Below, piece after piece: positions 5,343 through 44,753 of a DNA stretch of 64,000 bases (position 1 is the stretch's first letter; the number at the start of each line of letters is the position of its first letter). The notes under the pieces were generated by a model. The model was given only the letters and a program-made list of their open reading frames with translations, was not told the origin of the DNA and ran no database searches. The position numbers and the translations under genes are program-made. This stretch comes from Candidatus Omnitrophota bacterium (GTDB lineage Bacteria > Omnitrophota > Gorgyraeia > Duberdicusellales > 4484-171), in contig JBDRJF010000005.1 in assembly GCA_043815185.1 (NCBI GenBank), positions 3,407 through 67,406 on the forward strand, written 5' to 3'.

Positions 5343-6177
5343 GATAAACTACTGTAATTATAATATCGCCTAAGCCTAAAGAAGTCAAGTCTGGGCCCTC
5401 AAAACCCTCCATTCGAGTAAGATGGATCAGGCAGGCTTTGCCTCCCTGTTTAAACTCTAAACTCACTCCCTCCATGGTTATCCCAGCCATAGCCGCTTTA
5501 GCCTGCTGGGGTATCTTAGGACAAGTAGGGCAATCTTCGACCTTTGATAGATCGTATTGCTCAGAGCCGATAGCTTCCTGATTACTGAGACTCCAGCCTT
5601 GCTGGGGCATCTTCTGAAGATAAAAACCTTTAACTGCTTCTATGCCTCCGCTGGCCATATACCCGGCTTGCAGGCCGGAAGGAGTTTTACGGTAATCTAT
5701 CTGTCGACTCCCGGGATATAGGGGCATAAAATCCAAAGATTTTGGCTTCTCAAACAAACCTAAAGGCTGTCCTTGCTCTGCCCCCAGGCCTTGGGCCTTA
5801 GGGAATTCGCCGACACTAATACTGTAGAAAATAAGCTCTTCGGCCTTAAGCGGAGAGAAGTTTAAAACCAGCATCTGATCCCCTTTAATAAAATTATAGA
5901 CCCGGCCCTGTAAAGGCCCTGGGGCCTGAAGCATTGGTAAATCCAGCTTTCCCCAGCCCTTTTTGCTCAAGTTTTGCTGATAAAACTGGAGAATCTCGCT
6001 TTGGCTCAGAGAAGAACTGTATTGATAAACCGTAAACTGGCTTCCGGATATTTCCTGCTCAGCCTGGCTGGATAAATTAGTCTTAGCCGGTATTGGAAAA
6101 CCAAAGATTTGTGAAAATCCTGAAAAACTGGTTAAAATAAAAAAGACTAAAACAACTGCTACTTTTTTACTATTCAT
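5329..6177 (-). CDS. Secreted protein of unknown function with an internal duplication
   Basis: 282 aa. Signal peptide MNSKKVAVVLVFFILTSFSGFSQ. Two related modules (SEILQFYQQNLSKKGWGKL vs EAVKGFYLQKMPQQGWSLS). Embedded between pseudopilin-like genes. Confidence 0.5.
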   Translation of the reverse strand: MNSKKVAVVLVFFILTSFSGFSQIFGFPIPAKTNLSSQAEQEISGSQFTVYQYSSSLSQSEILQFYQQNLSKKGWGKLDLPMLQAPGPLQGRVYNFIKGDQMLVLNFSPLKAEELIFYSISVGEFPKAQGLGAEQGQPLGLFEKPKSLDFMPLYPGSRQIDYRKTPSGLQAGYMASGGIEAVKGFYLQKMPQQGWSLSNQEAIGSEQYDLSKVEDCPTCPKIPQQAKAAMAGITMEGVSLEFKQGGKACLIHLTRMEGFEGPDLTSLGLGDIIITVVYHDAK

Positions 6178-6286
6178 CTCTGCCCCCTTTAGCTGACAAA
6201 ACTACTAAATAAACCCTATAAACTAAAACACCCTAATTAACTTCTTCCTTCATCCTTTATCCTTTCCTTCTCTTAAATCATTCAAT

Positions 6287-7774
6287 TTATTCCTCAATAT
6301 CTTTTATTGGCACGGCTAACTCCTCTAAAAGATGGTCGCTAAAGTCAGTTAAAACAATTGAGGCATCATAGTAAGGATGGGGACTATCAATTTTCCCATC
6401 GCCGGCAAAACAAGCCTGGGCTGAAGAGGTAGTCAGGGGGTATTCGGTACTCCAAACACCAAAATCTGCTCCCTGATAGCGCTGGGTTTGAATAACCTCC
6501 ACCAGCCGCTGGGGATTATCAGGAACTTCATCAATCCCGGTAATAAGATAAGGTAAGACATCGCCAGCGCTACTACTGGTAAAGGTTCCGTTAACCAATA
6601 AGCCCGCGTGGGCAGCAATGCTGGCAACCAAACCTTTTATTTCGGAGGCAAGGGCTAATCCGGCTATCCCTACTGCGGTACAAGGAAAAGGACAAGCTGC
6701 TGTGTCAGCCCAGCCTAAAAACCCCAAGGCTTCACTTCCAAAATACCAGGCTAAAGCCAGAGCAGCGATTTCTAGCGGAAAAGGCAGCATCGCAATCCGG
6801 AGAACATACCGCTCTATTGGCTCGATTGCTACCTGAACCGCCACATCATGGCTCCGACTCTGGCCGTCAAGCCAGGTATAATTCTTGATAGCGCTGTTGG
6901 CAACGTCGTCGATATTATCTTTTACCCAAAGCTGATATTCGGCCTTCTGGCTATCACAATTATCGATTAAACAATTTAGTTCTTCCCGGGAACAGGTATC
7001 TTGACAATCACCATAATCCTTCAAACAATCATTATCATATTCACCATCACTATCAATACAATCACTTCTAACCCCGCACCTTCCCTTACAATCCCTGTCA
7101 CAAGCTTTCTCACAGGCATCACAAAGGCTAATATCCTCTAGCCTGCAGCCTTTAAGTTTGGAAGCTGCGCCGCTGTTATTAAAAGCAAAACTATAGCCGG
7201 ACTCAAGAGCCCCCTGGTAATAATCAGCAACATTTTCGCGAATCATCCGGTAGAAGTAATATTGAGTCATCCAATAGCCAGTAACCGTAACCAGTAATTT
7301 TTTCATAGTGTCATTAAAAAGCTCCATTGAACCAGCAGCCACAGCTAAGGCTGCTAGGGCGTCAGCACAATATGATCCCCACAAAGCACAACACCAGGGC
7401 TTGGGACAGCATTTGGAATACTTGCAGGCAAGGGCTAAAAAGGTCATAGCCAGCGAGGTTTTAGTCATTGCCGTAGCCATAGCAACATAACCAATAGTAA
7501 AAGAAATCGTAGCCATGGCAAAAAAGTACTGGTAATTAACTATCATCTGGGAGTTGGCTACGGCCAGGTAATTAAAGGCTGAGGCCATGGTTGAAGCAGC
7601 GGCTAAGGCTCCGGCATCAGCAGCATTAGCCGAGTAGGTCTTGGTCTTGGCAACCTTTCCTATATTTACGGTAACTAAAGCAGCAATAATTACGGCGATA
7701 ATAAAAACAATAAAAAAAGGGACTAATTGTCCCTTATGATAAGCTAACTTATTTTGATTAAAATAAATAAACAT
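6287..7774 (-). CDS. tadG: TadG-like pilus-associated protein with a Cys-rich insert
   Basis: 495 aa. N-terminal TM helix plus a Tad N-terminal signature (VTVNIGKVAKTKTYSANAADAGALAAAS). 21 Cys, including KCCPKPWCC and CDACEKACDRDCKGRCGVRSDCIDSDGEYDNDCLKDYGDCQDTCSREELNCLIDNCDS. Confidence 0.6.
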   Translation of the reverse strand: MFIYFNQNKLAYHKGQLVPFFIVFIIAVIIAALVTVNIGKVAKTKTYSANAADAGALAAASTMASAFNYLAVANSQMIVNYQYFFAMATISFTIGYVAMATAMTKTSLAMTFLALACKYSKCCPKPWCCALWGSYCADALAALAVAAGSMELFNDTMKKLLVTVTGYWMTQYYFYRMIRENVADYYQGALESGYSFAFNNSGAASKLKGCRLEDISLCDACEKACDRDCKGRCGVRSDCIDSDGEYDNDCLKDYGDCQDTCSREELNCLIDNCDSQKAEYQLWVKDNIDDVANSAIKNYTWLDGQSRSHDVAVQVAIEPIERYVLRIAMLPFPLEIAALALAWYFGSEALGFLGWADTAACPFPCTAVGIAGLALASEIKGLVASIAAHAGLLVNGTFTSSSAGDVLPYLITGIDEVPDNPQRLVEVIQTQRYQGADFGVWSTEYPLTTSSAQACFAGDGKIDSPHPYYDASIVLTDFSDHLLEELAVPIKDIEE

Positions 7775-7787
7775 TATAACATCTTAT

Positions 7788-8567
7788 TTAATTTTGCACC
7801 CCAAATACATCCTGTTCAGTTAATGCATCCGGCGTATATACCGGCCAATATAAATCTTTGGGATCAGGAATAACCTCTTCTTGCTCTTCTAATTCAGCGA
7901 TCAGGGTATCTAAGCTGCCTATCTGTTCTCTTAATAAGTCTACGGCTCCCGGCAGGTTATTTGCAATGGCAGCTATGGCTGCATCAGTCTGATCAATAAC
8001 CCCTTGATAACGGTTGATCAGAGGATTAAGGACATTATTGATCCTGTTGTCTATTTCAATTATTCTCGCCTCAATCACAGTTAACCGGGCTTTAATCCAA
8101 TCTATCCGATCCACACAGGGCTCACATTGGCCATCCGGGCAACGCATCAAACAAGTCTGATAAAGTTGTGCCAGTTCAGCTTTTAAAGCGGTCCGCTCAG
8201 TCTCCCAAGCTGTCCGCTCAGTTTCCAAAGCTGCTTTCTCGGCCTTAAGCCGGCTTAAATCACTCTTAATCGGCGCTTTAGAGGCTTCCAATTCTGCTGT
8301 AGTATCATCGGTAAGCGGTTCCGTGGAATCAATTTGAGCCTGCAAAGCATCCCGCTGATCTTTAAGATTTTCCAGATAACTGTTGTCTACGGGCTGGCCG
8401 GAATTTTGGGTTACGGTTCCGGCAACAACCCGGGTCTGACTATATGCCGGCTGGCGCTGGGCAATCTGGCTATCACCCCAGATCCAGATACCGATTATAC
8501 CAAAGAATAAAAATAATCCGATAACTAAAACCAGAACTACCTCTAAAATTGCTTGTGACTTTATCAT
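7788..8567 (-). CDS. TadE/pseudopilin-like protein with a long coiled-coil body
   Basis: Likely start is ATG 8567 (MIKSQAILEVVLVLVIGLFLFFGIIGIWIWG), with a TAATG overlap on the upstream stop; the track start 8585 is GTG. Heptad-rich C-terminal part with a 21-nt tandem duplication (ETERTAW/ETERTAL, about 8190-8235) and a CLMRCPDGQCEPC motif. Confidence 0.5.
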   Translation of the reverse strand: MIKSQAILEVVLVLVIGLFLFFGIIGIWIWGDSQIAQRQPAYSQTRVVAGTVTQNSGQPVDNSYLENLKDQRDALQAQIDSTEPLTDDTTAELEASKAPIKSDLSRLKAEKAALETERTAWETERTALKAELAQLYQTCLMRCPDGQCEPCVDRIDWIKARLTVIEARIIEIDNRINNVLNPLINRYQGVIDQTDAAIAAIANNLPGAVDLLREQIGSLDTLIAELEEQEEVIPDPKDLYWPVYTPDALTEQDVFGVQN

Positions 8568-9142
8568 TATTGACTGGTGTCCCACCCTCTTTGTTTACTG
8601 GTTATTCTGTTCTGGCTAATCGTCTTTATCGGCTTCTCATCGGGATCCCTTAAGGTGTAAGTTAGATTTTCATCAATATCCACTTTATGAACAGAGCTAA
8701 TAAGACTAAGGGTTTCTGTCCGATTAAAACTTTTATCCAGCTTGGTACCGTATTCAAAAACAATATCACCGATCTGGTCATCCTCACTTAAGCTTATCTC
8801 TTCGTCATTAATGTTATAATAAAAGCTTCGGATCTGCTGATCCCCAACATAAGGAACTGACCAGTGAACATAATTTGAAGCACTGAGGTTGGTTCTTTGT
8901 CCGGCTAAAGGAGTATTGATGTCGATATGCCTGCGGTCTTCCAGGGTAGTATAATTAACTATAGCATTCTCATCATGGGCTTTCTTCAAAGCCTGGCGAA
9001 AATTACCCATTAAGGTATATTGCTCATCATTTAAACGCTGGATATAGCTGATCAGTAATGAAAATGCTATTAAAATCAGGGAACCTAAGATTCCTATCTC
9101 TAATACTGCTTGAGCTTTTCGAAAATAGATCGTCTCGGTCAT
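8567..9142 (-). CDS. tadE: TadE-like pseudopilin
   Basis: 191 aa. N-terminus MTETIYFRKAQAVLEIGILGSLILIAFSLLISY (basic leader, AQxxxE, hydrophobic helix). ATGA overlap with the upstream gene. Confidence 0.55.
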   Translation of the reverse strand: MTETIYFRKAQAVLEIGILGSLILIAFSLLISYIQRLNDEQYTLMGNFRQALKKAHDENAIVNYTTLEDRRHIDINTPLAGQRTNLSASNYVHWSVPYVGDQQIRSFYYNINDEEISLSEDDQIGDIVFEYGTKLDKSFNRTETLSLISSVHKVDIDENLTYTLRDPDEKPIKTISQNRITSKQRGWDTSQ

Positions 9143-9528
9143 TCCTGGCTTTCCTCATGGCTTATCAGGGTATCCGGCGGTTGGCTTGTGCCCGGCACAC
9201 CCTGTCCGTAATCTATCTGATCTAAACTCTCTACCTCATGGGTTGAATCCACGGTGTAGGAACTTGAGATACTAAGGCCGCTGCTTCCTCCTCGGCCTTC
9301 ACTTTTCTGGATATTACTGTTAGAAGTGATATTTTTGACAGACTTCTCAGTTACCGGATCATTTAAAGAAGCTAATTGTTTATCACTGATAACAGCATCG
9401 GTTAAGTCTTTTACCCGGGCCTGGATAGCTCTGCGCAAATAAGTATTCATTGTGGCTAAAGCTAAAACCACAAGAATAATCAAAATTACATATTCTGGTA
9501 AAGCCATTGCCCTTTTAAGCCTTGGCAT
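9139..9528 (-). CDS. Flp/TadE-like pilin with a Ser/Thr-rich tail
   Basis: Probable start is ATG 9528 preceded by GGGAGG (track start 9540 is GTG). MPRLKRAMALPEYVILIILVVLALATMNTYLRRAIQARV..., 129 aa. Confidence 0.55.
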   Translation of the reverse strand: MPRLKRAMALPEYVILIILVVLALATMNTYLRRAIQARVKDLTDAVISDKQLASLNDPVTEKSVKNITSNSNIQKSEGRGGSSGLSISSSYTVDSTHEVESLDQIDYGQGVPGTSQPPDTLISHEESQE

Positions 9529-38757: not shown

Positions 38758-39906
38758 ATGAAGGAAGAGATTAAGAATCTTAAAGCGGAATTGGAAAAGG
38801 CCCGCTCCCAACTATATGTCTTCTATGAGCTTACCAAGGCTATGCGGAGGACGCTTAGGATTGATGAGATAACCTACATTATTTTAACCGGCTTAACTGC
38901 CCATGAAGGCTTAAGATTTAATCGAGCCGCTATATTTTTTACTGATCAGGAAACTAGAAAAATCAATGGCTTTATGGGTATCGGACCTATAGATAATCAA
39001 GAAGCAACTCGAATATGGCACAGCATCGAAAAGGAAAAAAAGAATCTCTATGACTTAATCGATAATTACCATCACATAAAGGAAGATAAGGTAAAGCCGC
39101 CTTTTATGAAACTGATTCAATCCCTTTCTTTTCCTCTTGATAAGAAAGGTGGATTACTTTTTAATGCACTCTACAAAAAGGATGTAATTCATATTAGAGG
39201 GGGGGAGAATAAGTTTAAGAACGATCCCCTAATCAAGAGTTTAAATCTAGAAGAATTCCTTATTGTTCCGCTATGGATAAAAGGTAAGCCTAACGGGGTA
39301 ATGGTGGTGGATAACTATATTACCAAAAACCCGATAAGTGACGATGAGATAAAAATATTTACTATGTTCATGGAGCAAGCTCAAGGGGCCTTGGAGAACT
39401 CTCAGAGTTTTGAAAGTACCTTAACCCAGGCTCACACCGATCCCCTAACCTCCCTCTGGAACTACGGTTATTTTCAATATCGGCTCGATGAGGAGATAGC
39501 TAAAACCAACTCCAGCCTTCTGCCTTTATCGGTAATGATGGTCGATATTGATAATTTTAAAAAATTCAATGATAGCTACGGACACATCCAGGGTGATGAA
39601 GCCTTAAGAAGAATAAGCCAAATCTTTAAGGAAAATTGCCGTAAAATTGATATCTTATGCCGTTACGGCGGGGAAGAATTCTCGTTGATTTTACCAGCTA
39701 ACAATAAAAAAGAAGCAGCATTGCTGGCTGAGCGAATAAGAAAATCTGTTGAGGGCAAGACAATCTTAAACAACAATTTCACCATAAGTATCGGCATCGC
39801 CTCTTATCCTAAAGATTCAACTAATAAAATAACCCTAATCCAGAAGGCTGATCAAGCTCTCTACGCGGCTAAAAGAGCAGGGAAAAATAGGGTAGTTCTG
39901 GCCTAG
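38758..39906 (+). CDS. GAF-domain diguanylate cyclase (GGDEF)
   Basis: 382 aa. N-terminal coiled coil plus a GAF-like region, and a C-terminal GGDEF domain with active-site GGEEF and DIDNFKKFNDSYGH. Confidence 0.85.
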   Translation: MKEEIKNLKAELEKARSQLYVFYELTKAMRRTLRIDEITYIILTGLTAHEGLRFNRAAIFFTDQETRKINGFMGIGPIDNQEATRIWHSIEKEKKNLYDLIDNYHHIKEDKVKPPFMKLIQSLSFPLDKKGGLLFNALYKKDVIHIRGGENKFKNDPLIKSLNLEEFLIVPLWIKGKPNGVMVVDNYITKNPISDDEIKIFTMFMEQAQGALENSQSFESTLTQAHTDPLTSLWNYGYFQYRLDEEIAKTNSSLLPLSVMMVDIDNFKKFNDSYGHIQGDEALRRISQIFKENCRKIDILCRYGGEEFSLILPANNKKEAALLAERIRKSVEGKTILNNNFTISIGIASYPKDSTNKITLIQKADQALYAAKRAGKNRVVLA

Positions 39907-42900
39907 GAGGGGACTGCTTCTTGGGCAAACTTTACTGATACCAGTTTAGAAATACCTTTCTCTTGCATCGTAACACCATATAAAACATCGGCATTACTCA
40001 TAGTTTTTTTGTTATGAGTAATCAGGATAAATTGAGAAAGAGCAGCGAATTTTTTCAGGAGATGATTAAACCTATCAACATTAGCTTCGTCTAAAGGAGC
40101 ATCTATCTCATCGAGAATGCATAAAGGCGAAGGCCTGACGCTAAAAATAGCAAAAACTAAAGCTATGGCAGTTAGAGCTTTCTCGCCTCCCGAAAGAAGA
40201 GAAACGTTTTGTAATTTTTTTCCCGGAGGCTGAACTTCAATTTCCACACCTGACTCTAAAACATCATCCTTATCAAGAAGAATAAGGTTAGCTCTTCCTC
40301 CGTTGAATAAAAATCTAAAGTTCTTTTTAAACTCCTGCTCAATCTTATTGAAAGTATCTAAGAAGAGTTCTCGCGAGGTACGATTAATCTTGGCAATTGC
40401 TTTCTTTAGCTTATCTTTAGAGATAATTAAATCTTGTTTCTGGCTATCTAAGAAATCTTCACGTTTCTTAAGTTCTTCGAACTCTTCAATAGCCACTAAA
40501 TTAACCTCCCCAAGCGATTTCATCCGCTTGCTTAATTTTTCCTTCTCCGCTGAGAGTATATCTCTGTTCTCCTCAATCAGTTCCCCGGACACAGGGCTAA
40601 ACTCGACTTTATAAACCTGAAACAAATAATCTTTAACCTTCTCCTGCTCATACTCCAAGCTCTGAATTTCCAGCTTTTTATTATAAGTGGAATCACGTAA
40701 GTCCTGGGCTTCCTTCTCAAAAACTTGCAGGCTTTCTTTAACTTTATCAATCTCCTTGTTTAAAGACATTTCTTGCTCTCGGAAATTCTGCTTCTCTTCT
40801 GTACCTTGATCAATTTTAAGTTTATCGGCTTCTATCTTTGCTCGTAAACTCTCGATTTGGCCGTTAAAAGACATGGTTCGTAGCCTGTTTTCCTCTTCTT
40901 CTTGGTTAATTTGCTCTAAACTATGCTGAATATTACTCATCTCATCCTTAAAAAGAGTGATCTTAGACTCTAAGGTTTCTCTTTCTTTATGCAAAGATTG
41001 TTTCTGGGCAAGGTTACGAGTTATCTCAAAATCTATATTGGTTATTCTCTCTGAACCATTAGTTATAACTTGATTAGCTGAAGCTAAACTTTGATTAGCC
41101 TGATCTAAATCGTTCTGGTAAATAGCAAGTTCGGCTTCGATTTCTTCTTGCTTCTTCTGACAATCTCCGATATCATCAAGGGTGGCCTTCTCTTCCTGAT
41201 TAAGCAACTCTGATTCTTCTTCCAGACGCTCGGCCTCTTTGGCTAAACCACCCTTCTCTTGCTGCTCCTGCTGCAACCGGCTTCTTACCTCTTCAATTTG
41301 GGTAGTTTCGGCTGATAAATCCTGGCTGAGCTTACCCTTTTCGGTCTCTAGCTTTGCCTTCGCCTCTGTTAATCCCCCAATTTCATTCTCAATAAAGGCT
41401 ATTTTCTCCTCCAGCTGCTTCTCCTCAAAAGAAACTACCTTGGCCTCTATCTCGGCCTTATAAAATCCTCCTTCCTGTTTAAACTCTACATTCTGTAAGG
41501 AAGCAACTAACTTGTTAATGCCTTTGGGTTCTTCATCAAAAATAACGGTAATTCTCTTCTGGACCGAAAAGATCTCATATTTCATCCGTAAATCTTTTAG
41601 GAAATCATAACAGGTTTTAAGTTCCAGCAGTTCTTTTTCTTGAGTTACCAATTTTGACCTTAAATCTTCGGTCTGGGCGCTTAAGTTCTTTTCTTTTTGG
41701 GCTAAATTACTTCGCTGCTCTTGCAAAGCTGCTAAATCATTTTCTATCTTTATCAATTCTTCCTGAGCCGTCCCTAGATTATCCTTATTTTCAGTTAATA
41801 GAGTATCTAATTTTGCCTTATCCAGAAGTAAGCGCTTTTTCCGATTAACTAAAGAAGTACTTTTAGTTTGAGTTTCAATAAGAATGTTATGGGATTGTAC
41901 TTTCCTGCTCTCTAAATCCAGCACTTTTGTCTTTTCTCGGTCAACTGTCTTCTTAGCAGTTTCTACTTCCTGCTTAAAAACTTCTTTTTCTTCCTCTATT
42001 GTTTTGGCCCTTTGATCTAGCTCCTTTAAGTTTGCATCGATTGCTTCCAGCCGTACTATCTCTTCCTGGCTCCTATTCTCCTGCAGCTGCAACCGCTGAT
42101 TAAGATTGGTACGGGAAAGCTCAACATTTATGCAGCGCTGTTGAATCTCTTTTATCCTCTGATCATCAACCGCAATATGGCTAGCCGAACTCTCTATTTG
42201 AGCGTTTAGAGAAACAATAGCTGTTGTAGCTGCCTCTAACTTATCCCTTAGAACCTTAAGCTGAGCATTTAAATTCTCCCAAAGATTGTTAACTTCCTGC
42301 AGCTGTTCTTCTTTATCCTTCCCTTTATCTTTGAAAAGATTCAATTCTCCGGTGAGTTTACTAATTTTTTCTTCTAATTCTACAAATTGTAAAGAAGCAA
42401 TTTTTTTTTCTACCTCAATAAGTTTTTCTTGAGTTTGTTTATACTGTTTTGCTTTCTCTACCTGCCGCTCAAGATAACGTATCTGCCTCCTTACTTCAAA
42501 GAGTATATCTTCCAAGCGCAGTAGATTCTCCTCGGTTTCAGCTATCCGGCGTAAAGACTCTCTCTTTCGTTCCTTATACTTTATGATTCCACTGGCCTCA
42601 TCAAATATCAAACGTTTATCCTCGGGTTTATAGCTTAAAAAGATCTCTATCTTTCCCTGTTCAACAAAAGAATAGGTAGCTTCTCCAACGCCGGTACCCA
42701 TAAACAGTTCCTGGACGTCTTTTAACCTAACAACATTTTTGTTGATAAAATACTGGCTCTCACCGCTTCGGTAGAGACGCCGGGCAACTGATACCTCTTT
42801 ATAATCTATGGATAAATATTTATCTTCGTTAGAAAAGGTCAAGGCGACTTCGGCATAATTTAAGGGCGGGTGGTTTTCGGTGCCGTTGAAAATAACATCC

Positions 42901-44753
42901 TCCATCTTGGTTCCCCGCAAAGACTTAGGGCTCTGTTCTCCTAGAGCCCATTTAACAGCATCAAATACATTGCTGTTATGTACAATAAAATTGTCTGCTA
43001 CAAAGTTATGGTTACCATCTATACATAAATCATAAACCCACTCTGTGTCTGAAGGTAACTTCTCTATCTTTATGATTTCATCCCAATAAATATCAGAAGT
43101 AGCGAAAGTAAGAAGTCTTGAACCTAGCTCTCTGTTGTGAGTTGAGGATATTTGTTTAATTTCTTCCATGACTTCTAGAATTCCTCCGCGTGAAGGAAAA
43201 CAAGCGTCTTCATAGTAAGCTGACAGCTTAGGGCATTGTTTTTTTACTTTTTTTACACTAATACTTGAAGATTTTATGTATTCTTTGATTAAAGAATTAA
43301 TATTGGGAATAATATCAAAATTAGGATTAGCCTTTACGGTTATCTTGTTGATTGCCTTCAAAACCTCTTTCTTCTTTCCCACAAGATTAAGATAAGGCGC
43401 TATCTTCTTAATATTACTAATTCCGTATATATAAAGGGAGTAATATGTCCTCTTTATTCTCTTGGAAGTATTAGTAGCACATTTTACCTTTTCTCTTATC
43501 AAAGCTTGTACACCTAACCTCAATAAAAGAGTGGAAAGGCCGTAAGCTAATTTACGGCTAGCCGTAGAATATTCTATATAAAAATTCTTTCTTCCTTTTT
43601 CCTGTTTATTCTTGAAGTAAGCATCTCCTTCAAAAAGGGCAGAAATAAATTCTGAAATTACTTTGGGAGAAGACGAAAATAGCTGAGAAGGAATAACTTT
43701 TTCGCCTGACTTCCCCCCGTGTTTAATACCAAAAACTTTATCTAAAAACTTGCAAAGAACAGAAGAGAATATAATTACATCTTTTGCGCACTTTTTATAA
43801 GAAAATACTTTTGGTTTTAGACCAAAGGACTGCTCACTACATATACAAAAATCTTTTACAATAGCTTCATCTTCGTTTACAAACCAAACCTGATTAGAAA
43901 AGGTAGTCCTGCCTTCAGAAATAATATACCCCAGAAAACGCGCTAAATTTCTGTCTAAAGAATCCGGAATCTTTACATGTCCATTAGAGCGAGATTTAAA
44001 TTCTAAAGGGTTATAGCTATAATCCGTCTTTCTATCTAGCAACGAAGATACATGGGCCGCATTTAAGGCCTGTTGGCTTCTGACACCGCACAAAACTGAA
44101 GAAGAAACTCCCAATTCTCCAGCCAAAGCTTTCCACCCCCCACAATTTGCTTTTTCTAAATAAACCAATTCTTTCAATTCCTCAGAATAGGGAACGTAGA
44201 CTAAATCTTGAGGAGAAAAACAATTAATAACCTCTCTAGTCCCCAGTCTATCTTGAGGAAAATCTATATTAAGCTTCCTTGGGATGGCTATCCTTACACC
44301 CTCTTTCAATTCTTGAGCCTTTAATGCCTTTAAACGTCCATCCTCGATCGTAAAAAAGGGATGGTAGTGAGTTGTAATTACTTCCTCGCCTTTTTTTGTC
44401 CTAATCTTAAGTAAAAAAGAAGGCGACTTTCTTCTTATAAATGAGTCTATTCTTTTTTTCTCGAACTTTAATGTGCTGGGATTAAGGGAAAAAACGGAAA
44501 GATTATCTTTATTCTCTAAACTACCTACCCCATCATCAAAAGAAATTAGTTTTTTTGATGAAGAAAGGCTCTCTTCTACTAATTCTCCAATTTTAACTGC
44601 TCTACCGCTGGCAAGGAAAACTAAAGAATCCGGATGCAGGCATTTCCCACAACCATTTGGACCAACAACTACGGTTATCCCTGATTCAAACTTAAGGGAA
44701 GTTTTTTCGGGGAAGGACTTGAACCCAAAAATTTCTAATTCTTTTAAATACAT
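39903..44753 (-). CDS. smc: Chromosome segregation protein SMC, interrupted by an intein in the Walker A loop
   Basis: 1616 aa. N-extein ...VVVGPNGCGK, C-extein SNVFDAVKWALGEQS..., long coiled coils, a hinge region, signature LSGGEKALTAIALVFA and Walker B LCILDEIDAPLD. 1060 aa after intein removal. Confidence 0.9.
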   Translation of the reverse strand: MYLKELEIFGFKSFPEKTSLKFESGITVVVGPNGCGKCLHPDSLVFLASGRAVKIGELVEESLSSSKKLISFDDGVGSLENKDNLSVFSLNPSTLKFEKKRIDSFIRRKSPSFLLKIRTKKGEEVITTHYHPFFTIEDGRLKALKAQELKEGVRIAIPRKLNIDFPQDRLGTREVINCFSPQDLVYVPYSEELKELVYLEKANCGGWKALAGELGVSSSVLCGVRSQQALNAAHVSSLLDRKTDYSYNPLEFKSRSNGHVKIPDSLDRNLARFLGYIISEGRTTFSNQVWFVNEDEAIVKDFCICSEQSFGLKPKVFSYKKCAKDVIIFSSVLCKFLDKVFGIKHGGKSGEKVIPSQLFSSSPKVISEFISALFEGDAYFKNKQEKGRKNFYIEYSTASRKLAYGLSTLLLRLGVQALIREKVKCATNTSKRIKRTYYSLYIYGISNIKKIAPYLNLVGKKKEVLKAINKITVKANPNFDIIPNINSLIKEYIKSSSISVKKVKKQCPKLSAYYEDACFPSRGGILEVMEEIKQISSTHNRELGSRLLTFATSDIYWDEIIKIEKLPSDTEWVYDLCIDGNHNFVADNFIVHNSNVFDAVKWALGEQSPKSLRGTKMEDVIFNGTENHPPLNYAEVALTFSNEDKYLSIDYKEVSVARRLYRSGESQYFINKNVVRLKDVQELFMGTGVGEATYSFVEQGKIEIFLSYKPEDKRLIFDEASGIIKYKERKRESLRRIAETEENLLRLEDILFEVRRQIRYLERQVEKAKQYKQTQEKLIEVEKKIASLQFVELEEKISKLTGELNLFKDKGKDKEEQLQEVNNLWENLNAQLKVLRDKLEAATTAIVSLNAQIESSASHIAVDDQRIKEIQQRCINVELSRTNLNQRLQLQENRSQEEIVRLEAIDANLKELDQRAKTIEEEKEVFKQEVETAKKTVDREKTKVLDLESRKVQSHNILIETQTKSTSLVNRKKRLLLDKAKLDTLLTENKDNLGTAQEELIKIENDLAALQEQRSNLAQKEKNLSAQTEDLRSKLVTQEKELLELKTCYDFLKDLRMKYEIFSVQKRITVIFDEEPKGINKLVASLQNVEFKQEGGFYKAEIEAKVVSFEEKQLEEKIAFIENEIGGLTEAKAKLETEKGKLSQDLSAETTQIEEVRSRLQQEQQEKGGLAKEAERLEEESELLNQEEKATLDDIGDCQKKQEEIEAELAIYQNDLDQANQSLASANQVITNGSERITNIDFEITRNLAQKQSLHKERETLESKITLFKDEMSNIQHSLEQINQEEEENRLRTMSFNGQIESLRAKIEADKLKIDQGTEEKQNFREQEMSLNKEIDKVKESLQVFEKEAQDLRDSTYNKKLEIQSLEYEQEKVKDYLFQVYKVEFSPVSGELIEENRDILSAEKEKLSKRMKSLGEVNLVAIEEFEELKKREDFLDSQKQDLIISKDKLKKAIAKINRTSRELFLDTFNKIEQEFKKNFRFLFNGGRANLILLDKDDVLESGVEIEVQPPGKKLQNVSLLSGGEKALTAIALVFAIFSVRPSPLCILDEIDAPLDEANVDRFNHLLKKFAALSQFILITHNKKTMSNADVLYGVTMQEKGISKLVSVKFAQEAVPS
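42975..44642 (-). mobile_element. 556-aa intein with a LAGLIDADG homing-endonuclease domain, inserted between GK and S of the SMC P-loop
   Basis: Starts CLHPDSLVFL (Cys1, residue 38). Block B ITTHYHPF. LAGLIDADG-type motifs LARFLGYIISEGR and FISALFEGDAYF. Ends VYDLCIDGNHNFVADNFIVHN followed by +1 Ser. Removal restores GPNGCGKSNVFDA. Confidence 0.85.

Follow-up and report, generated by a model that had tools for sequence, protein, structure and literature searches.

A probable homing intein in the Walker A loop of a chromosomal SMC gene from an Omnitrophota bacterium

Inteins in the P-loops of ATPases are well known. The locus described here raises the question of what an insert of 556 amino acids is doing in the Walker A loop of an SMC protein, whether the host protein can be recovered from it, and whether the insert still moves. 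It lies in a 64,000-nt stretch of DNA from a Candidatus Omnitrophota bacterium ("the window", from whose start all window coordinates are counted). We consider it about 80% probable that a chromosomal SMC gene is here interrupted, within its Walker A loop, by a canonical class-1 intein that carries a nested LAGLIDADG homing endonuclease. This reading rests on the membership of the insert in a family and a fold, on its exact boundaries, on the invariance of the catalytic residues, on purifying selection on the endonuclease, on signatures of transfer among relatives, and on a footprint of recombination at the junctions.

The insertion and its host protein

The SMC precursor gene (39903..44753, on the minus strand, as are all the parts of it given below) has 1616 codons and a stop, and its 4.85-kb reading frame is intact. 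It encodes an N-extein, the intein, and a C-extein, so placed that the Pfam SMC_N match is split at profile position 38. The N-terminus of the precursor reads ...VVVGPNGCGK up to residue 37, then CLHPDS...FIVHN (residues 38-593), then SNVFDAVKWALGEQS. The N-extein (residues 1-37, 44643..44753) ends with GPNGCGK, which is Walker A through Lys37. The C-extein (1023 amino acids, 39906..42974) begins with the +1 serine (codon 42972..42974), which is also the serine of Walker A. Between Lys37 and Ser38 lie the 556 residues of the intein (42975..44642), and in this respect the original prediction, made from the sequence of the window alone, is borne out at each residue and coordinate.

That prediction also called the host an SMC protein and held that removal of the insert restores a P-loop, and both claims stand. 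Removed in silico, the intein leaves a protein of 1060 amino acids which scores 884 bits on the NCBIfam model TIGR02168, "chromosome segregation protein SMC", for which the cutoff is 567. As expected of a bacterial SMC under this model, the spliced protein carries Walker A, the signature motif LSGGEKA (40176..40196) and Walker B, ILDEIDAPLD (40089..40118), the latter two in the C-extein, together with long helices. Positions 1-215 align with the Bacillus subtilis SMC head (3zgx) without gaps and with an E-value of 2.9e-73, the window protein reading VVGPNGCGKSNVFDAVKW and that of B. subtilis VVGPNGSGKSNITDAIRW; the insert therefore falls between the Walker A lysine and the next serine. In B. 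subtilis SMC this lysine is K37, the residue changed in the classical ATP-binding mutant K37I. Among the relatives retrieved (L numbers denote loci and P numbers proteins), the intein-free orthologues L001 and L002 have an unbroken GPNGCGKSN and the same EtfB-EtfA-SMC synteny. With a slash for the junction, the reconstituted intein-free site of the window gene is GGTTGTGGGAAA/AGCAATGTA, also written GGTTGTGGGAAA/AGCAATGTATTT.

Domains of the intein and the proposed splicing reaction

The splicing blocks and the two LAGLIDADG motifs named in the original prediction are all present, each in the expected part of the insert. The N-terminal Hint part (intein residues 1-125, 44268..44642) is recognized by its 43% identity to the PhoCDC21-1 intein (6rpq), by an AlphaFold 2 (AF2) model, and by Foldseek. 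It contains Cys1 of block A (44640..44642) and the T-H-Y-H of block B (44361..44372), with T91 and H94 in ITTHYHPF. Accessory helical region 1 (residues 126-225, 43968..44267), assigned from AF2 secondary structure, separates Hint-N from the LAGLIDADG endonuclease core (residues 226-420, 43383..43967), which is matched by Pfam LAGLIDADG_3. The core holds motif 1, RFLGYIISEG (43911..43940), where FLGYIISEG is residues 236-244 and includes E243, and motif 2, FISALFEGDA (43620..43649), where ALFEGDAYF is residues 335-343 and includes D340. Accessory helical region 2 (residues 421-515, 43098..43382) is taken from the AF2 model and is retained in P0026, a mini-intein of 288 amino acids. The C-terminal Hint part (residues 516-556, 42975..43097), with block F WVYDL...HNF and block G FIVHN, resembles the C-terminal parts of DnaB and CDC21 inteins in sequence comparison. 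The two accessory regions explain the large size of the intein, and such domains are usual in inteins that bear an endonuclease (PMC8966425).

The motif and domain matches of the insert are far beyond chance. Pfam Intein_splicing (PF14890) matches at 2.4e-26, split across intein residues 9-556; LAGLIDADG_3 (PF14528) matches at 2.3e-15; and NCBIfam intein_Nterm (2.4e-16) and intein_Cterm are also found. The AlphaFold model, made with 30 family sequences as input, has a predicted local distance difference test (pLDDT) score of 92 and a predicted template modelling (pTM) score of 0.91. Its top match in the PDB by Foldseek is the TliVMA intein-endonuclease (7qss; E 1e-30, TM-score 0.80 relative to the target), with further matches to PI-TkoII (2cw7), PI-PfuI (1dq3) and PI-SceI. 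Taken separately, the Hint fold matches the CDC21-1, TFIIB, RadA and DnaB mini-inteins over about 125 aligned columns with root mean square deviations of 1.4-2.5, and the endonuclease core matches the endonuclease domains of TliVMA, PI-PfuI and I-Tsp061I as well as enzymes of the I-OnuI family. The modelled core has the pseudo-dimeric alpha-beta-beta-alpha-beta-beta-alpha arrangement of LAGLIDADG enzymes, and E243 and D340 align with the catalytic aspartates of TliVMA in blocks C and E. Sequence comparison puts the Hint part nearest to the Pyrococcus horikoshii CDC21-1 intein and the endonuclease part nearest to the TliVMA intein. Cys1, the TxxH of block B, D538 of block F, H555-N556, the +1 serine and the exact restoration of the host on removal place the insert in class 1; class 3 was considered and rejected because Cys1 is present and invariant. 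Hidden Markov models of the family's Hint-N, Hint-C and endonuclease parts, run against the six-frame open reading frames of the window, matched the SMC frame alone.

A splicing model can be proposed by comparison with class-1 inteins. A precursor of 1616 amino acids would be made, in which Lys37 and Ser38 of GPNGCGK/S are held 556 residues apart, and therefore the ATP site could not form. Cys1, aided by Thr91 and His94 of block B and by Asp538 of block F, would attack the Lys37 carbonyl to give a thioester. The hydroxyl of the +1 serine would then accept the N-extein, yielding a branched ester, and Asn556, aided by His555, would cyclise and release the intein. An O-to-N shift would restore the Lys37-Ser38 peptide bond and so the SMC protein of 1060 amino acids. 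Once freed, the intein would be a site-specific endonuclease whose metal ligands are E243 and D340. Its target would be the stretch of an intein-free smc allele that encodes Walker A, and when the cut was repaired with an intein-bearing copy as template, the element would spread. Precedents exist for such an arrangement: in the Mycobacterium smegmatis intein DnaBi1, the P-loop serine of DnaB both coordinates Mg2+ and takes part in splicing, and RadA loses its ATPase activity when an intein occupies its P-loop (PMC6195587). The view that inteins cluster in the P-loops of ATPases, on which the original prediction drew, agrees with a survey in which such insertions recur in DnaB, MCM and RFC (PMC4760082). 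It is also sound to expect, as was first proposed, that chromosome condensation in this organism would depend on splicing of the intein.

Relatives, selection and an intein-free congener

The original prediction could not place the insertion site in any catalogue; it proves to be occupied in no fewer than 104 species-representative genomes. When proteins were searched with the intein, 28 relatives came up, and almost all were N-terminal fragments of SMC from Candidatus Omnitrophica/Omnitrophota bins. Among GTDB species, each represented by one genome, a scan gave 104 relatives, and 80 loci were retrieved. The upstream junction is covered in 79 of the 80 loci, and in every one of these the intein occupies this SMC site, GPNGxGK/C (GANGSGK in L081); L011 starts just four codons upstream of the intein. 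The 77 that reach the downstream junction read ...HN/SN, and internal stops are absent from all 80. By record titles, the loci belong to Omnitrophota (27), "Planctomycetia/Planctomycetales" (10, with exteins that group with those of Omnitrophota), Acidobacteriota (10), Chloroflexota (9), unclassified bacteria (6), DPANN archaea (6, from Micrarchaeota, Aenigmatarchaeota, Woesearchaeota and Iainarchaeum), Rokubacteria/Methylomirabilota (5), Patescibacteria/Saccharibacteria (3), Armatimonadota (2), Rubrivirga (1) and "Candidatus Undivivens" (1). No relative of the SMC intein turned up when viral contigs were scanned with the family alignment.

In the alignment of 77 copies, C1, T91, Y93, H94, E243, G244, G339, D340, V536-Y-D538-L539, H545-N (block F being given also as H545-N-F), H555 and N556 are invariant, and accessory region 1 is the least conserved part of the intein. 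The +1 residue is serine in all full-length copies and threonine in two mini-inteins, where the spliced Walker A would therefore read GKT. These two, P0026 and P0028 (the latter an intein of 185 amino acids in an archaeal-type extein), occupy the same SMC site and have lost the endonuclease core. The nearest relatives of the intein outside SMC are found in P0030, a terminase large subunit (28% identity), and P0029, a MoxR-type AAA ATPase (25%). The terminase copy sits at the equivalent GK/S position of its own Walker A loop (ARGHGK/C...HN/S), which fits movement of related inteins between the P-loop sites of different ATPases.

Selection and mobility were assessed in relatives, with Nei-Gojobori estimates of the ratio of nonsynonymous to synonymous substitution (dN/dS) on closely related pairs. 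The endonuclease core has a ratio of 0.06-0.16, compared with 0.02-0.10 in the Hint domain and 0.04-0.22 in the accessory regions; in the exteins of five pairs with unsaturated dS it is 0.02-0.12. The low values for the core indicate that the endonuclease is maintained and not decaying. Certain pairs of inteins resemble each other far more closely than their host genes do, a sign that the family is still mobile. In L041 and L044, DNA identity is 81-97% (mostly 88-97%) across the intein and 49-80% in the flanking smc sequence, with a step at each junction. In L009 and L010, the inteins are 77-100% identical (mostly 88-100%), and extein identity is about 93% beside the junctions and falls to 76-84% farther out, as would be expected of homing with co-conversion. 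Between the archaeal copy L064 and an Omnitrophota intein, identity is 48%, and between their exteins only 31%, which we read as a sign of transfer between domains. The inteins of L055 and L059 (Acidobacteriota) are 59-61% identical to those of L061 and L076 (Chloroflexota), with aligned extein heads at 30-32%. Either the element crossed from one phylum to the other, or the alignment is disturbed by additional sequence inserted in the acidobacterial C-extein; the hinge of L055 and L059 lies about 120 residues farther along than usual. Intein and extein identities are nonetheless correlated across the family (r = 0.71), so that there has also been much vertical descent within clades.

A natural counterpart without the intein was also found. 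The 90% cluster representative of the window protein is P0153, an intein-free SMC of 1060 amino acids present on eight contigs. One of these, L083 (GCA_964455085.1), is collinear with the window for 15 kb, through PEPCK, PurC, EtfB, EtfA, SMC, a convergent GGDEF gene, QueA, EF-G and YchF-C, and its nine complete genes are equal in length to their window counterparts. In bins of 150 nt, DNA identity is for the most part 83-98%, with about 91% over the whole and 74-77% in the QueA region. The L083 smc gene (6001..9183 of that locus) and the spliced window gene are both 3183 nt long, without indels and with 92.2% identity, and this comparison with an intein-less orthologue, proposed in the original prediction, shows the boundary of the insert to be exact. 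The 3' end of the window smc gene overlaps by 4 nt (39903..39906) that of the convergent GGDEF diguanylate cyclase gene (38758..39906, plus strand), and the convergent arrangement is kept in L002 and L083.

The differences between these two smc genes are not evenly spread. The densest cluster, 27 in 144 nt (nt 19-162), straddles the insertion point at nt 111, compared with a gene median of 11 per 144 nt and a 95th percentile of 17. As many as 21 of the 27 are in codons for an unchanged amino acid, within the most conserved part of SMC. Around the site itself, which in L083 reads GGTTGCGGCAAA/TCAAATGTATTC, 6 of 24 nt differ. The codon of the +1 serine is AGC in the window, AGT in L001-L005 and TCA in L083-L086, a switch of serine codon family. 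That the densest cluster straddles the insertion site points to recombination there since the lineages split. The tract could be the co-conversion left by gain of the intein, the trace of its loss, or the result of selection for a changed target in the intein-free lineage, and the L083 site may be a target variant that resists the endonuclease. L003, L004 and L005 were considered as donors of the DNA flanking the junctions and rejected: none is closer to the window than intein-free L083, and therefore no donor can be named among the sampled alleles. At third codon positions, the GC content of the intein (0.288) is lower than that of the exteins (0.377).

Several points weigh against an active homing intein in the window. 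We infer splicing and DNA cleavage, for this intein as for its family, from sequence. The signatures of lateral transfer come from relatives and not from the window copy, whose nearest sampled relative, L003, is only 70% identical. Motif 2 ends in D-A instead of D-G in the window copy, with alanine in 34 of the 77 copies. The Fisher p-value of 1.6e-5 for the divergent tract applies to a 144-nt interval picked after looking, and the tract could equally reflect intein loss or a target-site change in the intein-free lineage. The sliding-window maximum does fall on the insertion site, which was already of interest beforehand.

A first alternative is that the intein still splices while its endonuclease, in this genome, is inactive or out of targets, so that it would be a vertically inherited passenger late in the homing cycle. 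The correlation between intein and extein identities suits this view, as does the distance of the window copy from its nearest relative, and degenerate endonucleases are documented in splicing-competent inteins such as PhoVMA (PMC8966425). Set against this, both catalytic acidic residues and their flanking glycines are invariant in the 77 copies, the endonuclease dN/dS is as low as that of the Hint domain, the window copy lacks decay of the kind seen in P0026 and P0028, and the existence of an intein-free congener means that targets remain in nature. We judge such a passenger unlikely, though more probable than the other alternatives.

A second possibility is that the intein is kept as a switch. 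The motif CxxC (C-G-K-C) spans the N-terminal junction (GPNG-C-G-K/C), and a disulfide between Cys-3 and Cys1 could block the first splicing step, so that SMC would become active only in a reduced cell. Such a disulfide controls splicing in the engineered Ssp DnaE intein and in the native Pyrococcus abyssi MoaA intein, according to two reviews (PMC3922620; PMC10663303), and P-loop inteins are documented as stress sensors in DnaB and RadA (PMC6195587). However, Cys-3 is found in 115 of 120 intein-free relatives and in 52 of 77 intein-bearing alleles, the other 25 having mostly serine. Co-adaptation of Cys-3 with the intein was rejected on these frequencies, which show no sign of it; Cys-3 is a feature of the host. 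A switch of this kind would in any case be compatible with a selfish element. A regulatory role is on this evidence quite improbable. Equally doubtful is the broader proposal built on it, in which SMC maturation, and thus chromosome compaction and segregation, would be tied to a reduced cytoplasm in mostly anaerobic, very small-celled lineages, with the element moving between bacteria (Omnitrophota, Patescibacteria) and DPANN archaea that share their habitat.

That the insert does not splice at all, smc being a pseudogene or the precursor working unspliced, is very improbable given the intact 4.85-kb frame, the splicing residues invariant in 77 copies, the lack of internal stops in 80 loci, a C-extein that retains its signature and Walker B motifs, and the low extein dN/dS in the five pairs. 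An assembly or binning chimera that joined a foreign intein to smc, for which one could cite L070, a relative in which the SMC intein continues, close to the end of a contig, into sequence resembling GyrB, is hardly credible when 79 independently assembled genomes share the same in-frame architecture, both window junctions are in frame and restore the host exactly, and the flanking genes are collinear with those of the intein-free relative over 15 kb. In L070 itself (6001..7650, P0015, from a Rokubacteria bin), the intein frame enters the GyrB-like sequence GEGGMALKNTDGSHIRTLLLTFFFRQ after block F (HNFVA), some 140 nt before the contig stops. The likely cause is that assembly joined two related inteins, which would imply a related GyrB intein in that genome.

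An SMC without a canonical hinge, and comparison with known inteins

The host protein, as distinct from the intein, has a peculiarity of its own. Judged by sequence, the window SMC is without a canonical hinge domain. In place of the hinge, between the two coiled-coil arms of the C-extein, is a segment of about 51 amino acids, EIFSVQKRITVIFDEEPKGINKLVASLQNVEFKQEGGFYKAEIEAKVVSFE (41424..41576). Pfam SMC_hinge (PF06470) has no match at E<=1 in the central region of the window SMC or of L012, compared with 9e-26 in L006 and 3e-24 in L036, and the TIGR02168 match of the spliced protein, as reported, stops at profile position 534. By jackhmmer, no hinge was found in 20 Omnitrophota-type SMCs (1060-1133 amino acids, the window included) or in 6 Patescibacteria-type SMCs (736-838 amino acids); all other hosts of the SMC intein have one, and other Omnitrophota SMCs keep a normal hinge. 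A single-sequence AF2 model of the region gives two long helices with confidence and a low-confidence cap between them, and a protein search with the segment returned no match. The absence of a hinge may be the more unusual feature of this smc gene.

The sequences of SMC inteins are abundant in public genomes under uninformative names. The exact protein of 1616 amino acids is recorded at NCBI as MFH1519393.1, [quoted passage not shown], and entries for its relatives read "AAA family ATPase, partial" or "hypothetical protein". The SMC annotation is masked by the intein, and SMC can therefore seem to be missing from genomes of Omnitrophota, Patescibacteria and DPANN archaea. The SMC intein was matched by no NCBIfam "intein-containing SMC" model, a search of the open-access literature gave no account of a bacterial SMC intein, and the Anaeramoeba intein survey has no SMC. 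Understanding of inteins themselves is unchanged by this example. SMC nevertheless joins the ATPases whose Walker A hosts inteins, in at least seven bacterial groups (by record titles) and in DPANN archaea, with signs of current mobility and of transfer between domains. An intein-bearing genome and an intein-free congener whose smc is about 92% identical offer a defined natural target site for the study of homing and of target resistance.

Among known systems, the archaeal SMC inteins of Novikova et al. (2016) share the same host protein family. They receive a one-sentence mention, for archaea only, and the text names no insertion site (PMC4760082); the DPANN copies found here are at the same site as the window's intein. 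In that survey, SMC is absent from the table of the 15 commonest bacterial intein hosts (PMC4760082). With the inteins trapped by a Cys-3/Cys1 disulfide (Ssp DnaE and P. abyssi MoaA), the SMC intein shares the motif alone (PMC3922620), and Cys-3 of SMC is present whether or not there is an intein. The closest structural parallels are TliVMA (7qss), PI-TkoII (2cw7) and PI-PfuI (1dq3), which have the Hint domain, the two-motif LAGLIDADG core and the accessory domains in common with the SMC intein; TliVMA is an active endonuclease (PMC8966425). Identity to these is only 20-22%, however, the host and target site are different, motif 1 of the SMC intein has Glu and not Asp, and the SMC intein is about 120 amino acids longer than TliVMA. 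In position and chemistry, the nearest systems are the P-loop inteins of DnaB (site b, M. smegmatis DnaBi1), MCM (site a), RFC-S and P. horikoshii RadA. These too lie inside Walker A, their +1 Ser/Thr is likewise both the Mg2+-coordinating residue and the splicing nucleophile, and their precursors are likewise expected to lack ATPase activity (PMC6195587; PMC4760082). The M. smegmatis DnaBi1 is a class-3 mini-intein without an endonuclease, whereas the SMC intein is of class 1 with a full one, and its host, unlike theirs, is SMC, an ABC-type ATPase with a long coiled coil.

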